A stretch of 64,000 bases of DNA from an uncultured Bacteroides sp. (GTDB taxonomy: Bacteria > Bacteroidota > Bacteroidia > Bacteroidales > Muribaculaceae), in the NCBI GenBank assembly GCA_964433215.1, contig CAYSQI010000002.1, positions 66,496-130,495 of the forward strand, given 5' to 3'. This document shows positions 39,229 to 55,660 of the stretch, in pieces. Below the pieces are notes generated by a model that was not told where the DNA came from, did no database searches, and worked only from the letters and a program-made list of their open reading frames with translations. Each line of letters opens with the position of its first letter. The first letter of the stretch is position 1. The position numbers and the translations under genes are program-made.

Positions 39229-39270
39229 GATGTCGTTTGGTTAAGGTGATGATAAAAATATGAGGGGTGT

Positions 39271-40749
39271 TTATTCTGATTTCTTTTTCCAGCCGCGCGA
39301 GCGCATGATGGGGCCTTCCTGAGGCTTGAGCGAGGGCTGCTTGCCTACGAGCATTTTCAGCGCATGAGGGTTGCGTCGCTTAGCCAGCGGATTTTCGGGG
39401 TCGGCTTCTTGGATAGGCGCGTTCGCTGCACGGTCGTCGAAACGGCGGCCTTTGGTTCGCTCGGTGTAGCGGTCGTCGCCGGCGCGTTCGTTGAAACGGC
39501 CTTTGCGTTCGCCGGGTCGACGGCTTTTGCGTTCGTCGCGGCTGTCGCTCTTGGCGCGTTCGGCCGGGCCGTTGCCAATCTTGCCACCTGCGCGGACGAA
39601 GCTCTTGCGGTCGCCTTCGAAGATGACGTACTCGCGGAGCGAGCACTCCAGGGCGCCGTTGTAGAGCGGCAGCTTCTGACTGGGAGCGAGGCCTATGCGG
39701 GCGAAGTATTCGTCGCGGTAGCCGATAATCCAAGCGTGGTAGCCGGTGAATACGTGTTTGAGTTTCGAGCCGATGGTCTGGTACAAGGCGTCCATGTCGG
39801 GAGCGCTGATGCGTTCGCCGTAGGGCGGATTGGTCACCATGACGCCGGCGGGTTGCGGAGCTTCGGTCCAGGTGGAGATTGCGCGGCACTGCAGGTCGAT
39901 GTACTTGCCTACGCCGGCGCTTTTTATATTCTCAGATGCAATTTTTATAGCTTTCGGCGAGATGTCGGCGCCGAATATTTTGAAGTTGACTTCGCGTTCG
40001 CCGCTGTCGTCGTTGTAGAGGCGGTCGAAGAGGTCGGCGTCGAAGTCCTTCCAGCGTTCGAAGGCAAAGCCACGGCGGTAGATGCCGGGGTTGATGTTGG
40101 CGGCAATCAGAGCGGCTTCAATCAGGAAAGTGCCCGAACCGCACATGGGGTCGACCAAGGGACAATCGCCGCGCCAGCCGCTGAGCAATATGATGCCGGC
40201 GGCAAGCACCTCGTTGATAGGCGCTTCGGTTTGCGCTACGCGGTAGCCGCGCTTGTGCAGCGATTCGCCCGACGAGTCGAGCGACAGGGTCACGTTTGTG
40301 CCGTTGATGTGTACGTTGATCATCACGTCGGCATCGACCAAGCGTACACCGGGGCGCTTGTCTTCGCCGAAGCGATCCTTGAACCAATCGACGATGGCGT
40401 CCTTTACTTTATATGTGACAAATCGCGAGTGGCTGAATTCATCGCTGTTGGTCACTGTGTCGATGGCAAAAGTTTTGTCAATCGACAGCATTGACCCCCA
40501 GTCGAATTCTTTCACCATCTCGTACAGGCGCTCGGGGTCGCGCGCCTTGAATTTGTAGAATGGTTTGAGAATGCGCAGGGCGGTGCGGCATGAGAGGTTT
40601 GCCTTGTACAGGGTGGCAAGGTCGCCTTCAAATGACACCATGCGCCTGCCGGCCTGTATGTTCGTAGCGCCGAGTGCGCGGAGCTCTTCGGCCAGTACGC
40701 CTTCGAGTCCGGCGAAGGTTTTGGCCACCATTTCAAACTGATTGTCCAT
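39271..40749 (-). CDS. THUMP-domain class I SAM-dependent RNA methyltransferase (RlmL-like) with a charged low-complexity tail
   Basis: SLDSSGESLHKRGYR, APINEVLAAG, DPMCGSGT, NPPYGER. Confidence 0.9.
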   Translation of the reverse strand: MDNQFEMVAKTFAGLEGVLAEELRALGATNIQAGRRMVSFEGDLATLYKANLSCRTALRILKPFYKFKARDPERLYEMVKEFDWGSMLSIDKTFAIDTVTNSDEFSHSRFVTYKVKDAIVDWFKDRFGEDKRPGVRLVDADVMINVHINGTNVTLSLDSSGESLHKRGYRVAQTEAPINEVLAAGIILLSGWRGDCPLVDPMCGSGTFLIEAALIAANINPGIYRRGFAFERWKDFDADLFDRLYNDDSGEREVNFKIFGADISPKAIKIASENIKSAGVGKYIDLQCRAISTWTEAPQPAGVMVTNPPYGERISAPDMDALYQTIGSKLKHVFTGYHAWIIGYRDEYFARIGLAPSQKLPLYNGALECSLREYVIFEGDRKSFVRAGGKIGNGPAERAKSDSRDERKSRRPGERKGRFNERAGDDRYTERTKGRRFDDRAANAPIQEADPENPLAKRRNPHALKMLVGKQPSLKPQEGPIMRSRGWKKKSE

Positions 40750-40853
40750 ATCTGTCGATTTTCGCTTTCTTAATTATGTTGCAAAGGTAGCAATTTTAAT
40801 GCGATTATCGTGCGTCGTCGGCGCTTATTTGCGCATGCTCTGCCGAAAAACAT

Positions 40854-40893
40854 AAAAAAAAGAACGCGGCGACTCTCCCGAGCGGCCGCGTTC
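40854..40893 (-). terminator. Intrinsic terminator of the endonuclease gene
   Basis: GAACGCGGC...GCCGCGTTC stem with an 8-A tract on the plus strand. Confidence 0.78.
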
Positions 40894-40937
40894 CTACCTA
40901 TGATTCACTTATGTGATCTGAAATATCGTTTTCGACG

Positions 40938-43328
40938 TTATTTAACGAGTACTCGGCGCGCGAAGTCGTCGACCGACACTACGTATAGGCCGGGCGCCAG
41001 ATCCAAAGTCGTCTCGCCGACACCGACTTGAGCGGCGAATATGGTTGACCCGTCGAGACTGTAGACGCTGGCCATGACGGTCTCATCGGCTTCGATTACG
41101 AGCTTGCCGTCGCGGCAGAAGGCATCCCAGCGGTGGTAGTCGGCCACGGCGTCGGGTACGAGGTTTGAGTACTTGGTGGCGCTGATTTCGTCGACCAAGA
41201 AGCGCTTGCCCGAGGTCTGGCGCACGCGCAGACGTGCATTGCCGGCTACGTTGACTGTGAATTTCTGCTCGGTGTAGGTCGTCGAGCTGACGGTGCCGGT
41301 GCCGGCGCTCTGCCATGTCGTGCCGCCATCGGTCGAATATTCGAGCTCGTATTTAGCTTCGCCATCATTATTCCAGGCTGCGGTCCAGAGGCTTACGGTG
41401 CCGAAGCCGCTGTTGTGATCTTCAATTGCGGTGATTACTGATGAGGCTGACTTGCCCATGCGCACGGCTTGGTTGCCCATGTAGGCCTTGTCGTCCGGCC
41501 AGATGCCTGCGTCGTTCATTTCCCACTTGCAAGCTGAGCCTGTGTATGTGTGGTTATTATAAGTGCTGGCTGTGGCATTGACCGGTTCGAAATCTTCGTG
41601 GAAAGCAATGCCGGCCGATACTTCGGCTTCAGCTTCTGCATCGTCATTGAAATAATCACCGGCGGTTGCTACTATCGAGGTCTGGAAGTGTCCGACATTT
41701 GCCGAGTTGACGCGTAGGTACAGGCGGTCTTCTTCGGGGTCGAGGCTGATGCTGTCGCACCACGTCGACTTGTCGGTCGAGAGTTCGAAAGGCTTGGTTA
41801 CATTGACGTTCAATGCTTGGTCAATGTTTTCGATGAATACGAGTATCTCGGCTGCTTCCGAGGGTTCGCCCGGCTCGGCGGTGAAGTAGAGTTCGCCGTC
41901 GAAAAGGAATGTTACGCGAGGCTGCGGCTCGGCGGTGGTGACGGATACCACTTCCGATTGCAGGCGCTGCGAGCTGATGGTGTAGGTGTATGTGGTCTCG
42001 GCATCAAGGTCTTCAACCAGGAAAGCCTCGTCTGCTGCATCGACCGACATGGGATAGCCGTCGAGTGATTCGCCATTGAGGCATACGTTGAGCGTGTATT
42101 GTCCGTTAGTGTCGGCATCGCCTACGTTGCTCCATGTGGCTACGAACGAGCGGTCGTCGTAGGTGGTGACGGGGCCGACCGGTAGTGTGCTGATGGCTGT
42201 GCCTTTGAGGCTGACGCGCGAAGTCAGGCTGCCCGATGTCACGGTCAGCGTGGCGTTGTGGGTGCCGGCTACAGTCGGATTGTAAGTTATGGTGGCGGTG
42301 GCACCGCTATGAGCCGAGGCCTTGGTTATTGTCGTAGGTGATACGCTAAATGCAGCGTTGTCGACACTCAGTGTGACGTCGCTTTCGAGGGCAGCGCCGA
42401 GAACTTTTAGCGATACTGCGCGTGAATATCCGGCTACGGTAGTGCCTAAGTCAAGCGTCGATCCGTCGATTGGCTGGTTGAGGGTAGGCTCGCTGACGCC
42501 GCCGGGAGTCCATCCCATGCCTTGCTTGTCGCCCCAAATGTATTCGGCGAGTTCAGGATAGTCGATGAACGGGTTGCGGTTCGACTGATTTTTTGCTACG
42601 GCATCGTTGCGATTGATTTCTTTGTCGCTCACGGGGTCCTGACGGTGCCACTTGAGCAGCAGATTGATGGCCCAGGTCGTGAACGCCGGGTAGTTGTTTT
42701 TAGCCAACATCGGACTGCTCCACGAGCCGATTTGCGAGTAGTAGGCAGCAGCCATGTAGAAATATGAACGCGCGAAGTCGCCTTTGTATTCATCGTCGGG
42801 TTCGAAAACCTTGCCGGAATAGCCCGAGAAAGTAGAAGTGCCGAGCTTGCCAAGGGGCTTCACGCTGCCGTTGGCGGGCAGATATGTGCCGTTGGCGCAC
42901 TCGCCGAAGGGGTAGTTGCTGCGCTGGCCGTTGACTTTGCCGTCGGTCGGATATATATGATATGCGTCTGAGACCATCGGCGAAGCATCGTCAAACCAGC
43001 TTTTCGGGAAGGAGTGCTCGCGGTTGTAGCAGCTACCTACGTTCGTGTATGTGCCGCATTGGTCGGTCTTGTATTTATATTTGCTGGTCGAATACATGTC
43101 CCAGATGGTGCCGTCGGCGCGAGTGTCTGTTGTTTTATAGAGAGTCCACAGTCCTTTGTAGCTGAGTACCTTCGGATTACCTACGACGTTGTATAGGGCC
43201 GAAAGTAGCGCTTGTCCGCTTTTACCTTCGCAGTTACTGTAATAGCCTGCCGGGGCAGCTGCATACGCGGCGATGGCGCTGCACAATGTGGCGAGGAGGA
43301 GGAATGCACTTTTTTTTAGAAAGTTCAT
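40938..43328 (-). CDS. Secreted endonuclease I-family nuclease with Ig/Fn3-like accessory domains and a T9SS-like C-terminus
   Basis: Signal peptide; YNREHSFPKSW, SDAYHIYPTDGKVNGQRSNYPFG, FEPDDEYKGDFARSYFYM, WHRQDPV...RN; C-terminus VYSLDG...LAPGLYVV...RVLVK. Confidence 0.88.
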   Translation of the reverse strand: MNFLKKSAFLLLATLCSAIAAYAAAPAGYYSNCEGKSGQALLSALYNVVGNPKVLSYKGLWTLYKTTDTRADGTIWDMYSTSKYKYKTDQCGTYTNVGSCYNREHSFPKSWFDDASPMVSDAYHIYPTDGKVNGQRSNYPFGECANGTYLPANGSVKPLGKLGTSTFSGYSGKVFEPDDEYKGDFARSYFYMAAAYYSQIGSWSSPMLAKNNYPAFTTWAINLLLKWHRQDPVSDKEINRNDAVAKNQSNRNPFIDYPELAEYIWGDKQGMGWTPGGVSEPTLNQPIDGSTLDLGTTVAGYSRAVSLKVLGAALESDVTLSVDNAAFSVSPTTITKASAHSGATATITYNPTVAGTHNATLTVTSGSLTSRVSLKGTAISTLPVGPVTTYDDRSFVATWSNVGDADTNGQYTLNVCLNGESLDGYPMSVDAADEAFLVEDLDAETTYTYTISSQRLQSEVVSVTTAEPQPRVTFLFDGELYFTAEPGEPSEAAEILVFIENIDQALNVNVTKPFELSTDKSTWCDSISLDPEEDRLYLRVNSANVGHFQTSIVATAGDYFNDDAEAEAEVSAGIAFHEDFEPVNATASTYNNHTYTGSACKWEMNDAGIWPDDKAYMGNQAVRMGKSASSVITAIEDHNSGFGTVSLWTAAWNNDGEAKYELEYSTDGGTTWQSAGTGTVSSTTYTEQKFTVNVAGNARLRVRQTSGKRFLVDEISATKYSNLVPDAVADYHRWDAFCRDGKLVIEADETVMASVYSLDGSTIFAAQVGVGETTLDLAPGLYVVSVDDFARRVLVK

Positions 43329-43532
43329 GTCGCTGGGTTTAAAGTATTTTTTCAGGATTTTCGAAAACGGATGTCAAAATTACTGCAAAAATCCCATTTA
43401 TCAAATATGTACATTCCTTTTTTATGAGGAATTTGTCGTTTTTGGCGAATTATTGATAAAAGTTGATAAAGTTTCGATAAAAAATTTGTGGAATTAGAAA
43501 TCTTTGCGTACCTTTGCAGTCGCTAAACCCAG

Positions 43533-43603
43533 GGTTCCTTGGCCGAGTGGTTAGGCAACGGTCTGCAAAACCGTGCACAGCAGTTCGATTCTGCTAGGAA
43601 CCT
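43533..43603 (+). tRNA. tRNA-Cys (GCA)
   Basis: Acceptor stem GGTTCCT/AGGAACC with U discriminator, D-loop GAGTGG, anticodon arm ACGGT-CTGCAAA-ACCGT, T-loop TTCGATT; CCA not encoded; upstream TACCTTTG promoter motif. Confidence 0.95.
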
Positions 43604-43611
43604 CAACAACG

Positions 43612-43646
43612 AAGCGCATCAGTCATCCGGCCGATGCGCTTTTTTT
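43612..43646 (+). terminator. Intrinsic terminator after tRNA-Cys
   Basis: AAGCGCATC...GATGCGCTT followed by a T run. Confidence 0.85.
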
Positions 43647-43710
43647 GGGTCGGTTGCGTAAAACAGAGGTGCTTCAGGGTCAGCGGATGCGTGAACCCCA
43701 CAGTGGTTGG

Positions 43711-44709
43711 TTATGATTTTATGCTTTCGAGACGCTTCCTTTCTGCTTCGAAGGCTTCGAGGAAGTGAAATTCGACCGGGGATAGCTGGTGTTGGGCGCG
43801 TTCACGGAATTTGTCGTATTCATCATTGGCTTTCAGTTTGGCAACTTCGGCTGACACGCTTCCCGCATGGTTCAATAATTCCTTTCCCGACAGCTTCAAG
43901 AAATCGTCGAGCTTCTGAATCCAGTCTTTCATATACATCGGAATATGACTTTTAGCTTGGAGTTCGGCAAAATCGAGGTATAGATTGACAATACGGTTCA
44001 GCATATCGACTTCCTCTTCCGAAAGGTAGTTCTTGGCAATCTCAGCTTCTTGTTTTGAAGGCATGGCTCCTCGCCACGAAGTTAAACCCATAAAATCTTT
44101 TTCGGCATTGGCTCGATCATAGATTACCTCTGCGGCTGTATGTCCGTGAGCGGCAAAGTGCATCTTGTTCTGAACCGTTTTGAAGAACTGTTGGGTTATG
44201 GATGTGCGAGGGTCATAGTCTATGCTGAGGGCGTATATTTCCAATACCTTGCGGTAGAACACCTTTTCAGAACTGCGTATGTCTCGGATGCGAGCCAACA
44301 ATTCGTCAAAATAATTTCCTTGTCCGGCGTTTTTAAGTAAATCGTCATTGAGAACGAACCCCTTAATCATGTACTCTTTCAGTACCTGAGTGGCCCACTG
44401 ACGGAACTGCACGCCACGATGAGAATTGACACGATACCCCACGCTGATAATCATGTCAAGGTTATAATATGAGACTATATAGGTTTTTCCATCAGAGGCA
44501 GTTGTTGCATTTTCTGCAACAACTGAATTTCGCTGTAATTCACCACTTTTAATTACGTTTTTAATATGTCGTGAAATGGTTGATTTGTCGCGCTGAAACA
44601 ATTCAGCCATCTGGTCAGCCGTGAGCCACACAGTCTCATTAGAGAGCCGAACTTCAATCTTCGTCTCTCCGTCTTGTGTCTTAAATAATATAATCTGTCC
44701 GTTATCCAT
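43711..44709 (-). CDS. RhuM-family (virulence RhuM-like) protein
   Basis: ETVWLTADQMAELF, YYNLDMIISVGYRVNS.RG.QFRQWAT, IRDIRSSEKVFY, VQNKMH.A..G.TAAE. Confidence 0.9.
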   Translation of the reverse strand: MDNGQIILFKTQDGETKIEVRLSNETVWLTADQMAELFQRDKSTISRHIKNVIKSGELQRNSVVAENATTASDGKTYIVSYYNLDMIISVGYRVNSHRGVQFRQWATQVLKEYMIKGFVLNDDLLKNAGQGNYFDELLARIRDIRSSEKVFYRKVLEIYALSIDYDPRTSITQQFFKTVQNKMHFAAHGHTAAEVIYDRANAEKDFMGLTSWRGAMPSKQEAEIAKNYLSEEEVDMLNRIVNLYLDFAELQAKSHIPMYMKDWIQKLDDFLKLSGKELLNHAGSVSAEVAKLKANDEYDKFRERAQHQLSPVEFHFLEAFEAERKRLESIKS

Positions 44710-44778
44710 TTACAAATCGTATAATCTATTATTGTGAGAATCCGACCGTTAATCGTAAATAAATTAAACGTATGAAAG

Positions 44779-44908
44779 AAACTATGTTTTTGAAATCAGT
44801 GTAGCAAAGTTACTGATTATTACACTAATCCCCAAATTTTAATCAGCATAGTCGGTTCACATTTTCATTGGTCGAGAAATATTATTTATCGTAGTATGGA
44901 ATTTTTTT
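44779..44908 (-). repeat. Duplicated promoter/leader block (second copy at 46539-46769)
   Basis: AAACTATGTTTTTGAAA.CAGTGT.GCAAAGTTACTGA...CACTAATCCCCAAATTTTAATCAGCATAGTCGGTTC...GGTCGAGAAAT...GTATGGAATTTTTTT occurs at both sites and includes the TAACTTTG promoter motif. Confidence 0.9.
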
Positions 44909-44938
44909 GCACTTTTTTGAGGCTTTTTTCCTAAAGTC

Positions 44939-45082
44939 AAAGTCGAAACGCAATTAACCCAAGAGGGAAACCGTATCTCAAAGCAGACTATCTACAACTA
45001 CATACATGCCGATACAAGTAGAAAATTACTTGCAAACACCCGACACAAAGGCAAGTATAATCGCAAACATAGAACCAAGTAA
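44939..45082 (+). pseudogene. IS30-family transposase remnant
   Basis: My translation: KVETQLTQEGNRISKQTIYNYIHADTSRKLLANTRHKGKYNRKHRTK*, resembling the IS30 (I/V)S.ETIY.YI..D...L...LRH segment; no start codon, no DDE domain. Confidence 0.6.
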
Positions 45083-45203
45083 ATGTATCAAGACACATCA
45101 GATGCGAGAGCCGGAGAGTAGTAATCGGCGCTTGGTGTGACCGCAATAGCCTGATATGCGCTGATGCCAACTCGAGAGGGTAAAGCCGTTCACCTGAATG
45201 CCC

Positions 45204-46538
45204 TTATCTCAAAAATATGGACATGTATGCCGGTAAGTAAACGATATTCTCATCCTTACGAAGGTCTTTGGTATAAATTAAGTATCGACTGCTAATGCGA
45301 GATGAAAATTTTTCGCAGAAAGCGTCAAGGGATGCGTGAGTCTTGTATCCTGAAGACTTTACCTCAATGGGGATAATCTTTGCTCCATCAGAAAGCAGAA
45401 AATCTATTTCGTATAGATGATTGCTTCTAGGCGAAGGAAATGTGTAATAATAAAGTTCATGTCCGGCAGCCTTCAGCATTTGCGCAATGATATTTTCAAA
45501 AACGTAGCCAAGATCCGCGCTCAATTTATCAGACAACAATTTTTCGTATATGAGATTGTCTGTGAACTTTTTATCCCAAAACGCAAGAGTTACAAACAAC
45601 CCTGTGTCACAGATGAACATTTTGTAACGGTCCGAATCGCGATGAAGTGCCATTCCGACATTTGGGTCATTTGCATGATATGCAAGATTAACAACCATCG
45701 AATCGCTCATATCAAAAATGGTTTCGGCTAATCGAGATTGGCGTCCACCATCAGAGGCCGCTTTAACTGTGTATCGAGAGGCATTTCGTGTTAATTCAGA
45801 CGGAATGGCATGAAACAAACGCGAGGCATTTCCGGACGGATCAATCTTCATAAAGTCATTTTCGTAAAGACGAATAATTTGACGCTTTACAGTATCAACC
45901 TTATTCATGTTATTTGTTTCCAAATATGTGTTTACAGCCTGTGGCATTCCGCCAATGAGCATATACAATCTGAACTGACGCATAAGATTACGATTCGCCT
46001 CATCTCCAAGACTACGTTTGCGATCAAAGAAAAATTTAAGGTTGGGAATAGTCGTTTCATCTCCGGTAGCCCATAGGAATTCTTCGTAATCAAGAGGGTT
46101 AAGGGTTACTTCGTGCTCTTCACTTGGGATAATAATTCCTTTTACATTTTGTCTGATAGACAATAAAGAGCCGGTTTCGATATAATCATATCGGCCATCT
46201 TCAATTAGATATTTTATGGCTTGACGAGCATTCGGACATTTTTGAACTTCATCAAAAACTATAACAGATTTGCGCACATTAAGGTCGCATTTGAATATCA
46301 TTTGCAAGCGCATAAATATGTAGTCAAGGTCGGAAATATCGTCAAAAAGATCACGAACCTCTTTTTTACACTTAGCAAAATCTATAATAATGGCTGATTC
46401 ATACTCCTGTTCAGCAAATAGCTTGGCAATGGTTGACTTACCAACACGTCTCGCGCCTTTTATAAGCAAAGCTGTCGCTCCATTGCTTTCAGACTTCCAT
46501 TGAAGCATTTCTGAATAGATTTTTCTCTTGAATACCAT
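45204..46538 (-). CDS. Second AAA_14 ATPase with DUF4143 / PD-(D/E)XK-like C-terminus
   Basis: Walker A IKGARRVGKST, Walker B VFDEVQ, ETGSLL, C-terminal EIDFLL...PIEVKS. Confidence 0.9.
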   Translation of the reverse strand: MVFKRKIYSEMLQWKSESNGATALLIKGARRVGKSTIAKLFAEQEYESAIIIDFAKCKKEVRDLFDDISDLDYIFMRLQMIFKCDLNVRKSVIVFDEVQKCPNARQAIKYLIEDGRYDYIETGSLLSIRQNVKGIIIPSEEHEVTLNPLDYEEFLWATGDETTIPNLKFFFDRKRSLGDEANRNLMRQFRLYMLIGGMPQAVNTYLETNNMNKVDTVKRQIIRLYENDFMKIDPSGNASRLFHAIPSELTRNASRYTVKAASDGGRQSRLAETIFDMSDSMVVNLAYHANDPNVGMALHRDSDRYKMFICDTGLFVTLAFWDKKFTDNLIYEKLLSDKLSADLGYVFENIIAQMLKAAGHELYYYTFPSPRSNHLYEIDFLLSDGAKIIPIEVKSSGYKTHASLDAFCEKFSSRISSRYLIYTKDLRKDENIVYLPAYMSIFLR

Positions 46539-46581
46539 AAACTATGTTTTTTGAAACCAGTGTGGCAAAGTTACTGAGTAT

Positions 46582-46700
46582 AACGCTGATTTCCAAATTT
46601 ATGATGAGGTTTTTTGGCACTAATCCCCAAATTTATAATATGGTTTTTGGCACTAATCCCCAAATTTTAGATGAGATATCTGGCACTAATCCCCAAATTT
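46582..46700. repeat. Array with 33-bp period (19-bp core GGCACTAATCCCCAAATTT + 14-bp spacer); three exact cores and one degenerate
   Basis: Cores at 46616, 46649, 46682; degenerate AACGCTGATTTCCAAATTT at 46582 next to the minus-strand TAACTTTG promoter motif (46566-46573). Confidence 0.93.
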
Positions 46701-46840
46701 TAATCAGCATAGTCGGTTCGCATTTTTATCGGTCGAGAAATTTTTGCTATCAGTGGTATGGAATTTTTTTAGCGTCGGTTGTTTATATGTTGGTAATTAT
46801 TTTCAACCGTTTTTTTTACGTTGGACTAAAAAAATCAGTA

Positions 46841-47084
46841 AATTTGCGGACGGATCAATTGCCTTCGGCACCGTGCACCGGTCTTCGACCGACGTTCACT
46901 ATTGACCGACACGCTAATTAGAGAATTTGCGGTCGGATCAATTGCCTACGGCACCGTGCACCGGTCTACGACCGACGTTCACTATTGACCGACGCGCTAA
47001 TTAGAGAATTTGCGGACGGATCAATTGCCTACGGCATCGTGCACCGGTCTTCGACCGACGTTCGCTATTGACAGACACGCTAAT
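46841..47084 (+). repeat. Three tandem copies of an 83-bp palindrome-rich unit
   Basis: Units start at 46841, 46924 and 47007; copies 1 and 2 differ at 4 positions; internal hairpins TGCC-T(T/A)C-GGCA and CGGTC-T(T/A)C-GACCG. Confidence 0.97.
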
Positions 47085-47114
47085 AAAATTATTCAGATCT
47101 AAATACAGACGGAA

Positions 47115-48119
47115 ATGATACCACCGATTTATTCACCTGCTGAAAACCGCTATGAAAATGGTATGCACTATCGCCGTAGCGGCCGTAGCGGCATACTTTT
47201 GCCCGAAATTTCGCTCGGGTTGTGGCACAACTTTGGCGACGTAGACTTGCTGTCGAACTCGCTCAAAAAAGCTCACTACGCCTTCGACCATGGCATTACA
47301 CACTTCGATTTAGCCAACAACTATGGCCCCAGCTACGGCTCGGCCGAGGAAACGTTTGGCTTGATTATGGAGAAATCGTTCCGTCCCTATCGCGACGAAT
47401 TGTTCATCTCCACGAAAGCCGGACACGATATGTGGCCCGGCCCCTACGGAGAGTGGGGCTCGCGTAAGTATCTCTTTGCGAGCCTCGAACAGAGTCTGAA
47501 GCGTATGAAACTCGACTATGTCGATATCTTCTATTCGCACCGCTACGACCCCGACACGCCGCTCGAAGAGACGCTGCAGGCTCTTGTCGACATTGTGCGC
47601 CAAGGCAAGGCTCTATATGTAGGCATCTCGAAATATCCTAAGGATGCAGCAGAGTTTGCGTATAAATATCTGGCCGATAGTAAAGTGCCGTGTCTGTTAT
47701 ATCAGGGACGCTATAATATCTTAAATCGCGATCCTGAAGAGGAAGGTATCTTGGCCGGTGCGAAAGCTGCCGGTTCCGGTTTTATAGCTTTCTCGCCGTT
47801 GGCCCAAGGATTGCTCACCGACCGCTATCTCAACGGCATTCCGGCTGACTCGCGTGTGGCTCGCGGCGGTTACTTGAAAAAAGAACAACTCACAGAAGAA
47901 ACGCTCAGCAAGGTTCGTCGACTCGACGAGGTGGCTCGCCGCCGTGGGCAGACGCTGGCCGAAATGGCTCTCGCCTGGCTGCTCAAGGACGACCTCGTCA
48001 CGAGTGTAATTGTCGGCGCCAGCTCTGTCGAGCAAATCGAACGCAACCTCAAGGCTGTCAAAAATACGACTTTCTCAGCCGAGGAGTTGGCTGAAATCGA
48101 CAGCATCAGCAAGTCCTGA
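47115..48119 (+). CDS. Aldo/keto reductase (YghZ/MgrA-like)
   Basis: ISLGLWHNFG, HFDLANNYGP..GSAE, ISTKAG, DYVDIFYSHR, GKALYVGIS, FSPLAQGLLT. Confidence 0.93.
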   Translation: MIPPIYSPAENRYENGMHYRRSGRSGILLPEISLGLWHNFGDVDLLSNSLKKAHYAFDHGITHFDLANNYGPSYGSAEETFGLIMEKSFRPYRDELFISTKAGHDMWPGPYGEWGSRKYLFASLEQSLKRMKLDYVDIFYSHRYDPDTPLEETLQALVDIVRQGKALYVGISKYPKDAAEFAYKYLADSKVPCLLYQGRYNILNRDPEEEGILAGAKAAGSGFIAFSPLAQGLLTDRYLNGIPADSRVARGGYLKKEQLTEETLSKVRRLDEVARRRGQTLAEMALAWLLKDDLVTSVIVGASSVEQIERNLKAVKNTTFSAEELAEIDSISKS

Positions 48120-48141
48120 TTTCTGCAATCGTCAAAAGAAA

Positions 48142-48185
48142 ACCGGGCTGACGCCAATGAATTCTTGAGTCAGCCCGGTCGTTTT
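48142..48185. terminator. Bidirectional terminator between convergent operons
   Basis: ACCGGGCTGAC...GTCAGCCCGGT stem with flanking A and T tracts. Confidence 0.8.
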
Positions 48186-48197
48186 ATTTGTGTCGGG

Positions 48198-48527
48198 TTA
48201 CGATTGTTTTGGGGGATATTCGGAGGCGCGGCGCGGGTTCATCGGGAACCAGCCTTTGATTACACGCTGGCGCTGTTCGAAAATTTCGAGGATACTCCAG
48301 AACGACGAGAAGCCGACGACGCCGGCCAGTGTCGACCACATGATGTCGTCGACCCATAGCGACAGGGCGCACATGGCCGCACCCAGCAAGGCAAACCACC
48401 ACCAGCAGCGCGTGCCGAAGTAGTATTCACTTTTAATCACGATGGGGTGGAATAGTCCGATTATCAGGAAGGTGCCGAGGCCTATTACGAGCCCCGACAG
48501 ATGGTATTGGGCTAAGAGTTCGCTCAT
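48198..48527 (-). CDS. DUF4491-family small membrane protein
   Basis: FLIIGLFHPIVIKSEYYFG...WSILEIFEQ..RV.KGWFP.NP. Confidence 0.85.
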   Translation of the reverse strand: MSELLAQYHLSGLVIGLGTFLIIGLFHPIVIKSEYYFGTRCWWWFALLGAAMCALSLWVDDIMWSTLAGVVGFSSFWSILEIFEQRQRVIKGWFPMNPRRASEYPPKQS

Positions 48528-48558
48528 GTTTCTATTGTTGAGTGTTAGTGATTTGGTC

Positions 48559-49683
48559 TTATTTTCGGCGGCTGAGCCAGCGGCGCACCGGTTGGTCGTA
48601 GAGTCGTAGAGCGGCGTATGCTACCAGTATGTTCAGCGCCATGACGCCCAGAGCTACGGGCCATGTTTCGGCCAAGGTGTACTGCTTGGTGTCCATGAGC
48701 CATTTGTAGAAGAGGTACATCACCGGATAGTGAGTGATGTAGAGCGGGAACGAAATGTCGCCCAGGAACTTGCACACTCGGTTGGAGAAGGCGTCGCGGG
48801 TCTGGCCCGAAGCGCCGAGCCATACGAGGATGGGGAAGGCTACGATGATGCAGGCCGATTCGTACACGCCGTTGAGGCAGATGGCACCGTCGGTCGGAAG
48901 TACCGGCACGATGAACAGGGCCAGTAGGATGGCTGAGCAAATCCAGAATGCGCCCTTGATGGCTACGGGCTTGAAGATGCGCGACAGGAAGATACCGCAG
49001 GTGAACGGGAACAGCATGCGCAGCGAGCCTGTCAGGATGCCGTAGTCGGCCATGGTCCAGCCCACGCTGAGCGAGCCGGCGCCTGATGCGTCGGTCCAGG
49101 TGTAGACGGCGAGGCACAGGCCGAGTACTACGGCCAGCGCGCCGACCACGCGAGTGCGGCAGCGACTGATGACGAGCGCGTAGATTATGTTGCCGATGTA
49201 TTCGAAGAAAAGCGACCATGCCGGGCCGTTGAGCGGGAATGCTTCGCCATTGCCGCGCACTTCGTAGGAGCAACCGGGGATGGCCGGAATGAAGAGCATG
49301 GCGCACAGCAGGGCCAGCATGATTGAGGTCCAACTAACCTGGGTGCCGTCCCACTGCGTGCAGCCTTGGATGGCGAAGCAGATGGTGCCGACGATAGCAC
49401 CGAATATCACCATGGGGTGGAGACGGATGAGTCGGCGGCGGGCGAAGTCGGCCAGCGACATCGAGCGGTGCAGGCGGTCGTCGTAGGCATAGCCGATGAC
49501 GAAGCCCGAGAGCATGAAGAAGAAGTCGACGGCGAGGTAGCCGTGGTTGATAGTGCCGATGACGGGCGCGCCCGACGCGAAGGCAAATCCTTCGTGTATG
49601 TGGTAAAATACAACAAGGAGTGCTGCGACGCCGCGAAGGCCGTCGAGGAGCGCGTAGTGAGGTTTGGTATCTGAGAATGACAT
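48559..49683 (-). CDS. Acyltransferase_3 (OafA-like) membrane O-acyltransferase
   Basis: LDGLRGVAA..VV..H, AVDFFFMLSGFV, RRLIRLHP, WSLFFEY, LGDISFPLYITH. Confidence 0.9.
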   Translation of the reverse strand: MSFSDTKPHYALLDGLRGVAALLVVFYHIHEGFAFASGAPVIGTINHGYLAVDFFFMLSGFVIGYAYDDRLHRSMSLADFARRRLIRLHPMVIFGAIVGTICFAIQGCTQWDGTQVSWTSIMLALLCAMLFIPAIPGCSYEVRGNGEAFPLNGPAWSLFFEYIGNIIYALVISRCRTRVVGALAVVLGLCLAVYTWTDASGAGSLSVGWTMADYGILTGSLRMLFPFTCGIFLSRIFKPVAIKGAFWICSAILLALFIVPVLPTDGAICLNGVYESACIIVAFPILVWLGASGQTRDAFSNRVCKFLGDISFPLYITHYPVMYLFYKWLMDTKQYTLAETWPVALGVMALNILVAYAALRLYDQPVRRWLSRRK

Positions 49684-49718
49684 AATTATGGCTTTAGGTT
49701 GTACGATGGGATACGCGT

Positions 49719-50228
49719 TTACTTCTTTTGTGCTTGGCTGAAAAGGTTTTCGAGAGCGTCGGTGAGCAAGTCGAGCACGAGTTCGAAGCCTTCGGCGCCT
49801 TCGTAGTAGGGATCGGGTACATGGTCGTAGCGAGTGGCTATGTTGCCCATCCAGTCGCTCATCGGGTGGATTTTAGCCAGGGCTTCGGGCGAAGGAGCCA
49901 GCTCGCGCAGGTCGGATATGTTGCTCGAATCCATGCCGATGATGAGGTCGAAGTCGTCGAAGTCGGTGGAGCGCACCTGGCGCGCGCGATGGGTTAGTTC
50001 GAATCCGCGGCGGCGCGCGTGGATGCGCATGCGGTTGTCGGGCAGCTGGCCGGTGTGCCAGGCGCCGATGCCGGCCGAGTCAATCACCCACCGGTCAGCG
50101 GCGCCTTCGCGCTCGACTATGGCGCGGAAGATGCCTTCGGCGGCCGGCGAGCGGCAGATATTGCCAAGGCACACGAAGAGGACGCGCAGCGGACGCTGCT
50201 CGGGAAGTTCGGGATATTTATTTTTCAT
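49719..50228 (-). CDS. Low-molecular-weight protein tyrosine phosphatase
   Basis: P-loop VCLGNICRS, DSAG, DPYY. Confidence 0.93.
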   Translation of the reverse strand: MKNKYPELPEQRPLRVLFVCLGNICRSPAAEGIFRAIVEREGAADRWVIDSAGIGAWHTGQLPDNRMRIHARRRGFELTHRARQVRSTDFDDFDLIIGMDSSNISDLRELAPSPEALAKIHPMSDWMGNIATRYDHVPDPYYEGAEGFELVLDLLTDALENLFSQAQKK

Positions 50229-51354
50229 TGCGTAAGTCGTTGACGATTAGGGATGCTGCGCGCGCCGATGCACCCGCCGGGCCGAGGATGTCGCGCATCT
50301 GTCGGTAGCCTTCGAGCTGAGCGGCGCGTGCCGGCGAGTTGTTGGGCGTGAGTTGCTGCAGGCGCTCGGTCACGGCTTGTGGTGTGCAGTAGTGGAGCAG
50401 CATCTCGGGTATGATTTCGCGGTCGGCGATTAGGTTGGGTAGCGACACGAAGCGCACTTTTAGCAGGCGTTTCATCAGGTTGTAGGCCAGCTTGGAGCCG
50501 TTCGAGCGGTACATGACTACTTGTGGCACGCCGGCCAGGGCTGCCTCGAGGGTGGCGGTGCCCGATGTGACCAAGGCGGCATGGGCGTGAGCCAGCAATT
50601 CGTGGGTGGCGCTGCGCACGATTTTGAATTTGGTCAGTCCGCTGTAGACACTGTCGTCGATGGCCGGAGCACCGGCTACGACGATGGTGTAGCCCGGGAA
50701 TTGGCGCGCTACGGCATCCATCACCGGCAGGTTGCAGCGGATTTCGCCGCGGCGGCTGCCGGGCAGCAGGGCTATGAACGGGCGGTTGGCTCGCAGGCCG
50801 TGAGTGGTGGCGAATTCTTCGCGCGAGGGAGTAGCGGCCAGCGCGCGCTCGATTTCTTCGACCGACGGATTGCCCACGTAGGTGGCTTGGTCGTAGTCGT
50901 GAGCGCGGTAAAAGTCGGGCTCGAAGGGCAGGATGCACAGCACACGGCGCATCAGTCGGCGTATGGCCTTTACGCGCCACTGCTTCCAGGCCCAAATTTT
51001 GGGCGATATATAATAATATGTAGGAATCGAGGCCTTGGCGGCAGTTTCTGCGACTTTGAGGTTGAAGCTCGGGTAGTCAATCAGAATCAGCGCGTCGGGT
51101 TTTGAGTCGACGACGGCTTTGCGTGCCGTGGCGAGGTTCTTGCGCACCTTGCCCAAGTTGCGGAGCACTTCGCTGAAGCCCATGTAGGCCATTTCGCGAT
51201 AGTGAATGAGGGGCGCGTGCCCGGCCACGTCGGCCATGAGGTCGCCACCGAGGAAGGTAAAGCGAGCTTGTGGGTCGGCAGCGGCCAGTTGCTGCATCAG
51301 CTGCGAGGCGTGCAAGTCGCCCGAGGCTTCGCCGGCTATGAGAAAGTAGTGCAT
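50218..51354 (-). CDS. lpxB: Lipid-A-disaccharide synthase
   Basis: IAGEASGDLH, IDYPSFN, PKIWAW, LLPGSR, TSGTATLE, SLPNLI. Confidence 0.95.
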   Translation of the reverse strand: MHYFLIAGEASGDLHASQLMQQLAAADPQARFTFLGGDLMADVAGHAPLIHYREMAYMGFSEVLRNLGKVRKNLATARKAVVDSKPDALILIDYPSFNLKVAETAAKASIPTYYYISPKIWAWKQWRVKAIRRLMRRVLCILPFEPDFYRAHDYDQATYVGNPSVEEIERALAATPSREEFATTHGLRANRPFIALLPGSRRGEIRCNLPVMDAVARQFPGYTIVVAGAPAIDDSVYSGLTKFKIVRSATHELLAHAHAALVTSGTATLEAALAGVPQVVMYRSNGSKLAYNLMKRLLKVRFVSLPNLIADREIIPEMLLHYCTPQAVTERLQQLTPNNSPARAAQLEGYRQMRDILGPAGASARAASLIVNDLRNEK

Positions 51355-51797
51355 CAGCGTCGTTTTTTGAAGAAGTCAACAATCAGTGCGGCGCATTCGT
51401 CGGCCATGACGCCCCATTCGACTTCGGCCTTGGGGTGGAAGGGTGAGGCCGATGTGAGCGACCGATATCCGCGACGTTCGTCGCCGGCGCCGATGACGAT
51501 GCGGCGAATTTGGCTCCAGCCTATGGCGCCGGCGCACATCAGGCATGGCTCCAGGGTGACGTAGAGCGTGGCATCGTCGAGGTATTTGCCTCCGCGTTCG
51601 TTGGCAGCAGCGGTGATAGCCTGCATTTCGGCGTGAGCGGTGACGTCGCGGAGGGTCTCCGTGAGGTTGTGGCCGCGGCCTACGATGCGTCCACCGGCCA
51701 CTACGATGGCTCCGACGGGAATTTCGTCGTCGGCCATGGCTTGGCGAGCTTCGCCGAGCGCCATCTTCATGTAATATATATCGTCGGGGGTAATCAT
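51354..51797 (-). CDS. tadA: tRNA-specific adenosine deaminase
   Basis: EIPVGA, TAHAE, YVTLEPCLMC.GA. Confidence 0.88.
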   Translation of the reverse strand: MITPDDIYYMKMALGEARQAMADDEIPVGAIVVAGGRIVGRGHNLTETLRDVTAHAEMQAITAAANERGGKYLDDATLYVTLEPCLMCAGAIGWSQIRRIVIGAGDERRGYRSLTSASPFHPKAEVEWGVMADECAALIVDFFKKRR

Positions 51798-51810
51798 TCG
51801 GTTAGATGCG

Positions 51811-52725
51811 TCAGAGGTTGAGTGTGAGACCTTCGTTGGCGGCTACGATTTCGCCACTGAAGGTGTTGGCGGCTTCGCGAGCAAACTGGTTGATGTCGCG
51901 GTAGACCTTAGAGTAGTGGCCGAGCACGAGGCGGCGAGCGCCGGCGGCCGTGGCAATGAGTCCGGCTTGCGAGGCGGTGGAGTGTCCGCGTGTCTTGGCC
52001 TTGGCCAAGCAGTCGTCGCAGTAAGTTGCTTCGTGATATAGCGTGTCGACGCCGCGCACCCACTCGGCGATGTCCGGCTTGTAGGCTGTGTCGCTGCAGT
52101 AGGCATAGCTGCGAGCCGGGGTGGGGTCGGTGGTGAGCATGGCGTTGGGGATGACTCGGCCGTCGGGGCGGACGAAGTCGGCACCATTCTTTATGTCGTT
52201 CATGCGGCTGACGGGCACTTCGTGGTAGCGTACCATGTCGCCGATGATGTGTCGTTGGCCGGGTTTTTCTTTGAACAGAAAGCCGACGGCTGGCACGCGA
52301 TGGTCGAGCGGGAAGGTCTCGACGGTGAGCGCCTTGTCGTCGACGATGGTTGCACGGCCCGGCTCGAGGATGTCGTATTCGATGGTGTAGGGGCGTTCGC
52401 GGCAGAAGACGCGGAGTATGCGGTCGAGCACGTCGGCGCCTTCGGCAAAGGTGTGTATGGTGATGGTGCCGCTGATGTCGTGCAGTGCCATGGTCGATAG
52501 CAGGCCCGGTAGGCCCAGGAAGTGGTCGCCGTGGAGGTGTGATATGAATATGTGGGTGAGGCGGTTGAGCTTCAGGCGCATGCGCTTGAATTGCAACTGC
52601 GCACCTTCGCCGCAGTCGATCATCATTAGTTGGCCGCGAAAGTCGATGACTTGGCACGACGGCAAGTGGTGTGCCGTGGGCGTGGCTGAACCGCAGCCGA
52701 GGTAGTTGATGTCGAATGCAGGCAT
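51811..52725 (-). CDS. rnz: Ribonuclease Z
   Basis: LGCGSATP, DCGEG.Q, SHLHGDH, YCSDT, HEAT, GHYS. Confidence 0.93.
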   Translation of the reverse strand: MPAFDINYLGCGSATPTAHHLPSCQVIDFRGQLMMIDCGEGAQLQFKRMRLKLNRLTHIFISHLHGDHFLGLPGLLSTMALHDISGTITIHTFAEGADVLDRILRVFCRERPYTIEYDILEPGRATIVDDKALTVETFPLDHRVPAVGFLFKEKPGQRHIIGDMVRYHEVPVSRMNDIKNGADFVRPDGRVIPNAMLTTDPTPARSYAYCSDTAYKPDIAEWVRGVDTLYHEATYCDDCLAKAKTRGHSTASQAGLIATAAGARRLVLGHYSKVYRDINQFAREAANTFSGEIVAANEGLTLNL

Positions 52726-52737
52726 TTGATTGGTGTT

Positions 52738-53457
52738 TTAGGTGTTGAAATTCCGGGGAGTGAGGGTGGTGATAGGAGTCAGACCGGTGTGTGTGCCGGT
52801 AATGGGCGCCAACTGATAATCGGGACGCATCAGCAGGAAGTGGCACAGCCCGATGCCGCAGTCGAGCAGTAGCATCGAATCCTTAGGGTCGCCGAATATG
52901 TCGACTGAGCCTGACGGATTGAACGCAAAGCGCCAGGGCTGGCGATTGCAGGCGCTGGGAGCCAGGCGAATGGCTTCGACGGCCTCGGCCAAGTGCTCGG
53001 GAAGGGAGCCGGCGATAATCAGTTCGGAAATGGGGTGACGGCTGCGTGCGTGTACGGCGCTGCGCATCACACGCTCGATCAGTCCGGCGCGTGGTGCGGC
53101 ATATCCTACGGCGATGACGGCGGCGATGTCGCGTCCGGCAGTGCGGCGAGTCAATGAGCGATTGAACGTGCCGCTAATCCAGCAGGTGGCCAAGCCGCGG
53201 CGAGTGAGTTCGACGACGAGGCGCTCGCCTTCGATGCCGGCTTGCAGCAAGTCGTCGGCAGCTACGGCTACGTAGCGTGGCCGGCCCTTGATGATGCCGT
53301 ACGTACCCACGCGCCCCGAGCCGAGTGCGGCCGGGTCGAGCACGGTGAGTGTCGGGCTATCGGCACACAATTCCTCAAGCAACCCGTCGGGTACCGCTTG
53401 GTCGGTGAACGTGCGTGTCGAAATGCGTCGGTTGATTGCTTCGGAAATTGTCAACAT
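52738..53457 (-). CDS. Nitroreductase-family protein (two-lobed)
   Basis: AINRRISTRTF, GLATCWI, APSACNRQPWRF, DCGI. Confidence 0.85.
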   Translation of the reverse strand: MLTISEAINRRISTRTFTDQAVPDGLLEELCADSPTLTVLDPAALGSGRVGTYGIIKGRPRYVAVAADDLLQAGIEGERLVVELTRRGLATCWISGTFNRSLTRRTAGRDIAAVIAVGYAAPRAGLIERVMRSAVHARSRHPISELIIAGSLPEHLAEAVEAIRLAPSACNRQPWRFAFNPSGSVDIFGDPKDSMLLLDCGIGLCHFLLMRPDYQLAPITGTHTGLTPITTLTPRNFNT

Positions 53458-53458
53458 A

Positions 53459-54199
53459 TCAGCCTTGGAGAGAGAGTTTTCGATTATTTAAAACGGCGAT
53501 TACTTCGTCTCTCATATATGGTATATCTATAACATAAGGCCGGCCGTTGTCAGGATGAAAAATAGCCAATTTGCTATTAGATACAATTATACCATAGTTC
53601 TTTTCAAGAATGTATCGATAGATACTTACTTGTAAAGCGTAGTGCCAGTAAGTGGTGTCATAAACATGGTCGATGGGGCTGAAAGCTCTCTTGTTCCATC
53701 TATTGCACTTTTCGGGCTCTCCGTTTACGATAATCTTGTTGCTTCGTTTCCAATCGTAGATTGTGAATTCGCCATTCTGAAAATTCAAGAAATCGAGAGT
53801 GCCGGCCGTCGCGGTTTCTTCGTCATAAATAGCCCACTCCGTACGGTATGGGGTTAATTTATGAGTTTCGGTGAACTGCTCAAAAAGTCGGTATGTAGCA
53901 TCACTGGTATTTGGAAGGCCCAAATAATGCCGTTCGATCTTATGATGTAATTGTGTGCCCAAGTTACGAGCTTCTTCTCCTTTCCGGGCCCACATATCCA
54001 GCACTTCTTGAGGAGTCATGCCTAAGCTTGGCGCCTTCTTTTTCGACCAATAATCAGCGTCAAATTGTTCGAAACATTCTTCGACAATGGTAGTTACGGA
54101 TTTGAATACTTGGCCATTGTGGGTATATGTGTGCGAGGCTTCGTCGAAAAAAATTCGAGAATCTCTGACATGGCTGTTATCGGAGTTGAAATTTTTCAT
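53459..54199 (-). CDS. PD-(D/E)XK nuclease-superfamily protein (RecB/YqaJ-like exonuclease)
   Basis: SVTT, GTQLH..IE, EWAIYD, AGTLD, IYDWK, HYALQVSIY; AT-richer than its neighbours. Confidence 0.82.
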   Translation of the reverse strand: MKNFNSDNSHVRDSRIFFDEASHTYTHNGQVFKSVTTIVEECFEQFDADYWSKKKAPSLGMTPQEVLDMWARKGEEARNLGTQLHHKIERHYLGLPNTSDATYRLFEQFTETHKLTPYRTEWAIYDEETATAGTLDFLNFQNGEFTIYDWKRSNKIIVNGEPEKCNRWNKRAFSPIDHVYDTTYWHYALQVSIYRYILEKNYGIIVSNSKLAIFHPDNGRPYVIDIPYMRDEVIAVLNNRKLSLQG

Positions 54200-54227
54200 G
54201 ACAGACTATTGAGGAAAGATTGAGCAC

Positions 54228-54569
54228 TTATATGATACGACATTTGAAGTCCATGTCGGAGAGGGCGCGGCTCACGGCTTGTGCACGGTCGCCTTGGATG
54301 AGAATTTCGCCGCCGCGGCATGAGCCTCCTACACCCAGAACTTTTTTCAAGCGGGAGGCTACGCTGTCGATTTCATCGTCGTCAATGGTGAAACCGGTGA
54401 TGATGGTAGCGACTTTGCCACCGCGACCTTTGCGTTCGACGATGATGTCGAGCCGGCCTTTTTGTGAGGCTTTCGGTTCGGTGGCAGGCTCGGCCTCGGC
54501 CGGGCTATCGGCTTCGGGCATCTCGGCTCGCAGCCCCATCAGTTTGTCGCGCCAATCGTCGGTCATCAT
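54228..54569 (-). CDS. SUI1/YciH-family translation initiation factor
   Basis: ERKGRGGKVATII.G, LK..LGVGGS...GEILIQGD. Confidence 0.9.
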   Translation of the reverse strand: MMTDDWRDKLMGLRAEMPEADSPAEAEPATEPKASQKGRLDIIVERKGRGGKVATIITGFTIDDDEIDSVASRLKKVLGVGGSCRGGEILIQGDRAQAVSRALSDMDFKCRII

Positions 54570-55033
54570 TCGAGTTCGGTGTGATGCAAGTGGGTGGAGT
54601 CGTCGTGGCTGTTCTCGATGTATGGCTCGTCTTCGGCGCCGACGAGTGAGTCGCGGGGAATTTCAAGGTACGAGCCTACGGAGTAGAGGGTTGTCAGTTG
54701 CGAAGCACCTTCGGACGAGCACGAATTCAGGAAGCTATCGACAGAGTCGGTGCTGAGTGAGCGAGCGCGATTGAGGCAGCGGACTGCCGCACCATCGTTG
54801 GCTCCGGGCTCGCCTGAGAGTAGCACATACAACTCGGCCATGCGGCAGAGTTGTGTAGCCGAAAGGTCGTTGAACGCCGCAGTGTCGGCCAGCAGAGCGT
54901 CGCAGGCTTTTTGACAAGCTTTTTCGTTGCCGGCAGCCAAGGCAGCGGCGGCTTTAGCCACCGGGTCGTCGTTGGCCGACGAGCCGCACGACATTGCCGC
55001 AAGGGCAATCATGATGAAGAGGAGATATTTCAT
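54566..55033 (-). CDS. Hypothetical lipoprotein
   Basis: Lipobox AMSC-GSS; coupled by overlap to ribH and the SUI1 gene. Confidence 0.7.
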   Translation of the reverse strand: MKYLLFIMIALAAMSCGSSANDDPVAKAAAALAAGNEKACQKACDALLADTAAFNDLSATQLCRMAELYVLLSGEPGANDGAAVRCLNRARSLSTDSVDSFLNSCSSEGASQLTTLYSVGSYLEIPRDSLVGAEDEPYIENSHDDSTHLHHTELE

Positions 55034-55524
55034 ATATTCTTAACTTTCTGAGCGAAAGTGTGCATTTTGAGGGCTGCTTCGGCGGCTTCCGAGCCCTTGT
55101 TGCCGAGGCAACCGCCGGCGCGGTCGAGTGCGTCTTGCTCGCAGTCGACGGTGAGAACGCCGAAGATTACGGGTATGTCGCAGTCGGTATTCAGCGACGT
55201 GATGCCTTGTGTGACGCTTTGGCATACATAGTCGAAGTGGGGAGTGCCGCCGCGAATGACACATCCGAAGACGATGACTACATCGTAGGCGCCCGTTTCG
55301 ATGAGCGAGGATGCTGCGAAAGTGAGCTCCACGGCTCCGGGCACGGTGTAGCAGTCGATCATATCATCGTCGACGCCGTGTTCGTGGAGGGTGGCAATAC
55401 AACCCTCGGTGAGTGCGTTGGTAATATGGCCATTCCATTCGGCGGTGACGATGGCTACGCGTACGTCGCCTTCGATTTGCGCGTTGAACGGATTGGGTAG
55501 GCTATTGTTTAATCCGGTTGACAT
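55030..55524 (-). CDS. ribH: 6,7-dimethyl-8-ribityllumazine synthase
   Basis: AEWNG.IT, VPGAVEL, GCVIRG.TPHFDYVC, PVIFGVLT, GNKG.EAA. Confidence 0.96.
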   Translation of the reverse strand: MSTGLNNSLPNPFNAQIEGDVRVAIVTAEWNGHITNALTEGCIATLHEHGVDDDMIDCYTVPGAVELTFAASSLIETGAYDVVIVFGCVIRGGTPHFDYVCQSVTQGITSLNTDCDIPVIFGVLTVDCEQDALDRAGGCLGNKGSEAAEAALKMHTFAQKVKNI

Positions 55525-55660
55525 AAGGTTAAATTTTTAGTATCTGTGTTTGTGGCGCGATGCGCGGACTCTGCGTTTGCCGAGATTGAGCTGCAAAGTG
55601 CTGAGTATGTGCGCAAAGTGCTGAGTGCGCTCGCTCGTGCCGATGATTTTGCTATCGGGT

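Follow-up and report, generated by a model that had tools for sequence, protein, structure and literature searches.

Directly upstream of an aldo/keto reductase gene of an uncultured Bacteroides sp., palindromic 83-bp units are repeated head to tail, and the question that this locus raises is whether they act as a structured RNA leader, as a promoter module on the DNA, as a substrate for recombination, or as a neutral local duplication. We addressed it within a stretch of 64,000 nucleotides, referred to here as the window, and in the strains and metagenomes that carry the same locus or relatives of the unit. To our knowledge, the cis-regulatory RNAs that have been well described in gut Bacteroidales are few, and well-described families of REP-like repeats are lacking there. 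Leader biology differs in these bacteria because they use no Shine-Dalgarno sequence.

Layout, setting and predicted fold of the array

Tandem Repeats Finder returned one array at 46841-47084 (period 83, 2.9 copies, 93% matches, score 439), and cutting it in register gave three 83-bp units with a mean column identity of 96% (units 93-96% alike), in agreement with the three tandem units of the preliminary description. The same description had the first unit opening in a promoter motif and the last ending about 30 bp before the ATG; both statements hold, with TAAATTTG at 46839-46846 and 27 nt between the end of the array at 47087 and the reductase ATG at 47115. Units 1 and 2 differ at positions 1, 2, 12, 27, 47 and 73, and positions 27 and 47 are loop centres, which confirms the T/A swaps described for the middles of the triloops. 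The features of the locus are as follows.

32028-33446, minus strand: second AAA_14/DUF4143 ATPase gene of the window
43533-43604: tRNA-Cys
43711-44709, minus strand: RhuM-family gene
45204-46538, minus strand: AAA_14/DUF4143 ATPase gene
46684-46838, plus strand: AT-rich region 5' of the box, with TTTTCAACCG at 46800-46809; common to strains with and without the islet
46839-46846, plus strand: TAAATTTG, putative -7 promoter box, equal to unit 1 positions 1-8
46839-46921, plus strand: unit 1; outer stem with an A.A mismatch caused by A12; covariance model R1, 108.7 bits
46922-47004, plus strand: unit 2; best-paired outer stem; -28.6 kcal/mol, z = -3.3; covariance model, 108.8 bits
46922-46929, plus strand: AGAATTTG, box-like, re-formed at the junction of units 1 and 2 without the TA of TAnnTTTG; repeated at 47005-47012
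46929-46942 with 46984-46997, plus strand: helix P1 of unit 2
46943-46953, plus strand: helix P2 of unit 2 (TGCC-TAC-GGCA)
46956-46982, plus strand: helix P3 of unit 2, including CGGTC-TAC-GACCG
47005-47087, plus strand: unit 3, adjoining the reductase gene; outer stem broken by A12 and C69A; z = -0.4
47088-47114, plus strand: A-rich spacer from the array to the ATG (ATTATTCAGATCTAAATACAGACGGAA), kept in all strains
47115-48119, plus strand: aldo/keto reductase gene, YghZ-like, 334 aa (Pfam PF00248, E = 3.7e-71; homologues)

Probes of 19 and 21 nt taken from the unit matched the window only at the three places in the array, where 0.01-0.04 matches were expected. Seven unit variants were used to build a covariance model, which, run over the window with filters off, likewise recovered the three units (102-109 bits) and no fourth one, the next match scoring 13 bits with an E-value of about 1. 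An independent Logan contig of 871 nt from DNA run X3 is identical to window positions 46690-47560, with all three copies included, and the threefold repeat is therefore not an artefact of this assembly alone.

Homologues of the reductase are called L-glyceraldehyde 3-phosphate reductase in some sources. The gene caller of a public collection starts the gene at an internal ATG (47163, 318 aa); homologues of 331-335 aa span the 16 N-terminal residues in question and support the 334-aa start at 47115. The G+C content of the window is about 58-63%, and an AT-richer stretch (35-45% G+C) runs from the tRNA-Cys to the array. Four strain states were found for the interval between the tRNA-Cys and the reductase gene, namely no islet gene, RhuM only, RhuM with the ATPase, and a RhuM fragment. 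The ATPase gene at 45204-46538 is a strain-variable insertion between direct repeats of about 130 bp that are 85-94% alike (44779-44908 and 46539-46770).

Both ATPase genes of the window carry a 33-bp tandem repeat of 3-4 copies directly 5' of their start (46593-46700 and 33450-33567). Each of these repeats adjoins a minus-strand box of the TAAATTTG type, and the two differ in sequence. The repeat at 46593-46700 is present in 1 copy in L002 and L040 and in about 3 in the window and L035 (range 1 to 3.2). TTCGACCGA, the 3' strand of hairpin 2 (46884-46892, 47050-47058), recurs in the other 33-bp repeat at 33456-33565, and TTTTCAACCG, 39 nt 5' of the reductase box, is one variant of the repeat at 33450; from this match, spotted post hoc, TTCGACCGA/TTTTCAACCG may be a shared protein-binding motif. 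Two possible origins of the unit were rejected, since neither match extended: descent from the tRNA-Cys, with which it has ACCGTGCAC..TTCGA in common (short-word blastn, E = 14), and descent from the ATPase gene through an 18-mer at 45828 (short-word blastn, E = 0.05).

For unit 1, RNAfold yields a structure of -23.1 kcal/mol (z = -2.3) in which an outer stem is closed around TGCC-TWC-GGCA and CGGTC-TWC-GACCG, and for unit 2 the same architecture at -28.6 kcal/mol (z = -3.3). The predicted outer helix P1 pairs positions 8-15 with 68-76 and 17-21 with 63-67, with bulges at 16 and 73; inside it are predicted P2, which pairs 22-25 with 29-32 around a T-W-C loop, and a longer P3 that ends in CGGTC-TWC-GACCG. 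Unit 3 has a different predicted fold (z = -0.4), because C69A and A12 break its outer stem, so that the multibranch fold ascribed earlier to each unit applies to units 1 and 2 and not to unit 3. The reverse strand of the units folds about equally well. When the whole presumed leader is folded (z = -2.1), the ensemble prefers to pair the 3' arm of one unit with the 5' arm of the next, and in these predicted inter-unit hairpins the junction box sits in the loop; two kinds of pairing, within and between units, would thus compete. Sequestration of the start codon was not seen in the predicted fold of the leader, and no intrinsic terminator was found in the array. In Rfam, the tRNA-Cys was the only match of the window at the gathering score, and the array gave no match up to E = 10.

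Copy number among strains and relatives at other loci

The strain set consisted of contigs from many gut metagenomes whose encoded reductase is 96-99% identical. Among these strains the number of units, which the preliminary description had suggested comparing, varies from 1 to 3.

L040, L041: no islet gene; 1 unit
L002-L006: RhuM only; 2 units
L018-L021: contigs start 5' of the array, with the islet part outside the contig; 2 units
L035, L039: RhuM and ATPase; 2 units
Window: RhuM and ATPase; 3 units
L001: RhuM fragment; at least 2 units, with an N gap

DNA contigs from single runs also show this range, with one unit in a 485-nt contig of run X11 and three in the 871-nt contig of run X3. The array is thus a variable-number tandem repeat, head to tail and present in 1, 2 or 3 copies depending on the strain. 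L001, the GTDB representative metagenome-assembled genome (MAG) of the species, has 100 N at 1530-1629, inside the array. Most of the remaining contigs, and many short-read contigs from other samples, stop within the array, as a repeat would be expected to cause. In L040, the single unit is of the first-unit type in its 5' part and of the last-unit type in its 3' part, and such a hybrid is, judged by its sequence, a signature of unequal crossing-over. In every lineage the gene-proximal unit has a mismatch in the 3' arm of P1, and this mismatch differs by lineage (C69A, G70T or A67C).

The element appears to be recent and lineage-restricted, since in an 87%-identical orthologue of the reductase gene (L012-L017) the sequence upstream is unrelated, lacks the repeat and has a TAATTTTG box of its own. 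The array had also been proposed to mark the edge of the islet; this idea fails, as L040 and L041, without islet genes, keep one unit in the same place. In a contig of run X7 that covers window positions 46816-46926, an unrelated upstream sequence (…ACATTCAACTAAATTTTATTTAAT) is joined exactly at unit positions 3-5, and the unit boundary may be a recombination breakpoint.

A strict unit pattern matched, among GTDB representative genomes, only the orthologous locus of L001 ("uncultured Bacteroides sp."). Two patterns run against JGI metagenomes gave 0 matches and 2 chance matches inside coding sequence, three patterns run against viral contigs gave 0 matches, and blastn against plasmids and phages returned no match. 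By aligning Logan contigs of the source metagenomes to the array at 80% likeness, we found single unit-like copies in at least four other flanks within the same metagenomes, about 80-85% alike to the unit. Contigs of 2469 nt and 2206 nt from run X11 contain copies A and B, one of 2259 nt from X3 contains copy B, and one of 1590 nt from X4 contains copy C.

Copy A: unit positions 1-82
Copy B: unit positions 7-80
Copy C: unit positions 37-80 only, the promoter-proximal half
Copy D: unit positions 7-56

The depth of copy B in three samples was 68, 37 and 17, compared with 67, 35 and 15 for this organism. Copies A and B have a common 5' boundary, in which a T-run is followed by GCTAAC and then by TGTGCGG. 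In copies A, B and C, a TAAATTTGCG box (TATATTTGCGG in one variant of A) always stands 33 nt after hairpin 2, and an ATTG at positions 63-66 precedes this box by 20 nt.

The sequences of these paralogues are incomplete, and they were partly reconstructed from 30-letter loose ends and central differences. For copy B, the arms were rebuilt with the N gap of L001 as break point, and consensus tie-breaking was checked against a reported agreement of 0.87; the reconstructed arms read GCGGTTAGTC-C on the 5' side and ATTGGCTGAC-T-CGC on the 3' side. In this copy, pair 14:69 changes from G:C to A:T and pair 17:67 from T:A to C:G, 13:70 becomes T.G, and the remaining P1 pairs are kept. In copy A, pair 44:50 changes from T:A to C:G, the G at 50 being common to copies B and C. 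With unknown letters entered as N, 94.6% of the cells of the alignment pair, compared with 16-45% when the partners are slid by 1-3 columns, and a count of three pairs with double changes, as seen here at 14:69, 17:67 and 44:50, was reached in 9 of 500 shuffles. Pairs are therefore kept through two-sided changes, all from one divergence, that between the array and the dispersed type. Single changes produce G.U on the plus strand four times and A.C three times; a strand call from these wobble pairs was dropped, as such symmetric counts favour neither strand.

Support for selection on pairing thus appears real but thin, coming from one divergence and from partly reconstructed homologues. According to the preliminary description, a lack of other copies and of covariation, together with a start site downstream of the repeats, would speak for a neutral local duplication. 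Single copies do exist elsewhere, and three pairs are kept through changes on both sides; on these grounds the comparison supports the view that the element is more than such a duplication.

The putative promoter box and the readings of the element

The -7 consensus of the Bacteroides primary sigma factor, sigma-ABfr, is quoted as TAnnTTTG (PMC7366714). TAAATTTG matches it perfectly, and no other TAnnTTTG occurs from the divergent upstream gene to the reductase ATG; 20-21 nt 5' of it there is only TTTT/TTAC, as against the TTTG sought at about -33. Most likely the units would form the 5' leader of the transcript for the aldo/keto reductase, the one ground for this being that no other promoter-like box (TAnnTTTG) stands before the ATG.

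Three runs that are labelled metatranscriptomic (X1, X2 and X23) contain the locus, with a flat depth of about 25-75 over 19 kb (37000-56000). Because this depth is flat across genes on both strands and across intergenic DNA, with contigs that extend 5' of the box, these runs behave like DNA libraries and are unfit for calls of expression or of start sites at this locus. Their contigs, from libraries labelled METATRANSCRIPTOMIC RNA-Seq, contain untrimmed adapters. Two candidate transcript ends were consequently rejected. A start site at 46850/46851, suggested by contig starts, was abandoned because at 80% likeness contigs of the same runs cross the box, and the breaks at 46850 are graph branches at the polymorphic position 12. 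An RNA 3' end at unit position 76, suggested by an adapter junction in run X1, was discarded because adapter junctions fall anywhere.

The reading that we tentatively prefer, as a possible one, is that of a lineage-restricted, promoter-linked structured module that is transcribed here as the leader of the reductase mRNA and has been expanded by unequal recombination. The 83-bp unit would then be one of a small family of such promoter-linked elements, in which the potential to pair P1 around P2 and P3 is conserved. The ancestral locus would have had one unit directly after its sole consensus sigma-ABfr -7 box, and unequal recombination or slippage between the box-containing boundaries (AATTTGCGG) would have produced two or three copies in some strains. 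In RNA, two alternatives would be open to each unit, namely the intra-unit three-way junction and a hairpin in which its 3' arm pairs with the 5' arm of the next unit. The structured leader might modulate expression of the reductase through transcript stability or elongation, and the number of copies might tune this effect. Several results count against a leader RNA. A start a few bases 3' of the box would remove the first 4 P1 pairs of the first unit, and for the single-unit leader of L040 without these 4 pairs P1 is not predicted (z = -1.2). The gene-proximal unit has its P1 mismatch in all lineages, the single changes favour neither strand, and in copies A-C the element stands 5' and not 3' of the box.

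It is quite improbable, although conceivable, that the proposal extends further, and that the unit and its paralogues are an undescribed Bacteroidales cis-acting RNA or ssDNA module. Such a module would be physically coupled to sigma-ABfr boxes and would control a few genes, among them one for a methylglyoxal/glyceraldehyde-type reductase; the intra-unit junction and the inter-unit hairpin would be the two states of a switch, and copy number would be a heritable dial of expression.

A role at the level of DNA is a strong competitor, although somewhat unlikely in our estimate. The unit would then make up the 5' half of a sigma-ABfr promoter, with a platform for an activator or repressor, a -33-like ATTG and a spacer, as a module that a few promoters have in common; its palindromes would bind protein or form a cruciform that blocks the -33 region, and the array would be a set of tandemly duplicated promoter modules. 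A DNA-level promoter module fits copies A-C better, as there the element lies 5' of a perfect TAAATTTGCG or TATATTTGCGG box at the constant distance of 33 nt from hairpin 2, and the shortened copy C consists of the promoter-proximal half only. A TTTG-N19-21-TAnnTTTG spacing has reportedly been described by Bayley and colleagues in 2000, and the 20 nt between the ATTG and the box lie within it. Every junction of the array re-forms the box-like AGAATTTG, and the recurrence of TTCGACCGA in the promoter-adjacent repeat at 33450-33567, together with TTTTCAACCG upstream of the box, is also in line with a protein-binding role. At the reductase locus, however, the units sit after the only good box, and the junction boxes lack the TA and have a -33-like spacing of 17 nt. 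No regulator gene was seen among the annotated neighbours. Moreover, pairing predicts mirror-image double changes such as those in the arms 41 bp apart (14:69 and 17:67) and in the 5-3-5 palindrome (44:50), whereas one protein bound to both arms predicts no such changes, unless the regulator and its sites co-evolved.

We assign a comparably low probability to the other strong competitor, a neutral or selfish palindromic repeat, that is, a variable-number repeat in an AT-rich hotspot whose complementarity arose by template switching and gene conversion and whose effect on the reductase would be incidental. Copy number does vary freely among near-identical strains, and the same intergenic region varies in its 33-bp repeat (1 to 3.2 copies) and in two genes. 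The separate P1-breaking mutation of the gene-proximal unit in each lineage, the orthologue that does without the element and the absence of strand bias among wobble pairs point the same way. Replication template switching in quasi-palindromes can, in addition, yield paired double changes without selection. Neutrality is harder to reconcile with paralogues that have diverged by about 20% and keep the whole of P1 paired (13 of 13 pairs in copy B), the five changes at paired P1 positions being two double changes and one wobble, for which we estimate a chance of roughly 0.004. A promoter box that stays in constant register with the element at several loci also argues against it.

If the preferred reading of a transcribed structured module is true, a promoter-coupled module of this kind, with a copy number that differs among co-circulating strains, would offer a simple, testable way for strains to diverge in an aldehyde-detoxifying reductase. 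If the repeat is neutral, the locus would still illustrate clearly an intergenic hotspot of recombination next to a tRNA-Cys, the contents of which (the leader repeat, the 33-bp repeat and the two accessory genes for RhuM and the DUF4143 ATPase) vary independently.

Comparison with known systems

The remaining possibility, a single-stranded recombination substrate (REP/RAYT-, IS200/IS605-end- or attC-like) that a recombinase mobilises or once mobilised, is very improbable: it would account for the bulged imperfect palindrome, for dispersed copies in different flanks, for the run X7 strain with its exact join to other upstream sequence and for the CGTC with which hairpin 2 opens on the reverse strand, but the element is present without the islet, and neither an integrase, a transposase nor an HUH gene was seen among the nine annotated neighbouring genes. 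No integrase is found among the genes annotated for L002 within about 4 kb of the reductase gene in either direction. The families themselves differ from the unit, and a REP- or attC-like identity, as put forward in the preliminary description, is not upheld on size, tags, core sites or gene context, nor by the few copies seen.

REP elements measure 20-40 bp and have an unpaired GTAG/CGTC tag and one stem with a loop of 4-5 nt (CGTC type), and they occur in tens to thousands of copies and as head-to-head dimers (PMC3733652). Like REP and BIME sequences, the units are palindromic and extragenic, can cluster, and have been proposed to fold as single strands. Unlike these single hairpins, the unit is multibranched and 83 bp long, with loops of 3 nt; it has no GTAG, and its reverse-strand CGTC is paired within a stem and is not an unpaired tag. 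Neighbouring units follow one another head to tail, whereas REP dimers are head to head, and only a handful of copies were seen, with 0 further ones in the 64-kb window and about four other loci in whole metagenomes; no transposase is found among the annotated neighbours.

The core sites of integron attC elements are RYYYAAC and GTTRRRY. P1 of the unit ends in GCGG.../...CGC without such AAC/GTT cores, and the units lie 5' of the reductase gene, not 3' of cassette genes. As for a MITE, the P1 arms could pass as inverted repeats, but the right arm is followed by 14 nt before the next AATTTGCGG, copy B has no duplication adjoining its arms, and the copy number is low.

FopS/GibS is a multicopy family of RNAs of about 65-70 nt in Bacteroidaceae with canonical sigma-ABfr promoters; FopS begins with a single-stranded seed at its 5' end, ends in a terminator hairpin and was deposited in Rfam by its authors (PMC11697453). 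Identity with FopS was rejected, as the unit, a closed three-way junction by prediction, lacks a U-tract terminator and any Rfam match. Tandem riboswitch aptamers resemble the array in that structured domains recur on the way from promoter to start codon and neighbours can pair in alternative ways. Conserved tandem aptamers, however, are fixed in number and diverged, whereas the units are 93-96% identical and their number depends on the strain; in addition, the array has no Rfam match at E = 10 and neither a terminator nor start-codon sequestration, and an orthologue exists without the element.

The Correia repeats of Neisseria, the ERIC repeats of enterobacteria and the pneumococcal BOX/RUP repeats are small structured intergenic repeats that are co-transcribed with genes. 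The unit resembles them as a short, non-coding and self-pairing sequence that is found in several intergenic contexts, stands beside or carries promoter elements, varies between strains in presence or number, and is probably contained in mRNA leaders. It differs from them in that it occupies about five loci, is repeated head to tail, is predicted to form a three-way junction and not one long hairpin, has no recognised target-site duplication, and keeps a fixed register with a Bacteroides -7 box; its mobility would be purely hypothetical. Placed outside every family tested, the unit seems by analogy to work most like the Correia, ERIC and BOX repeats that end up in mRNA leaders.
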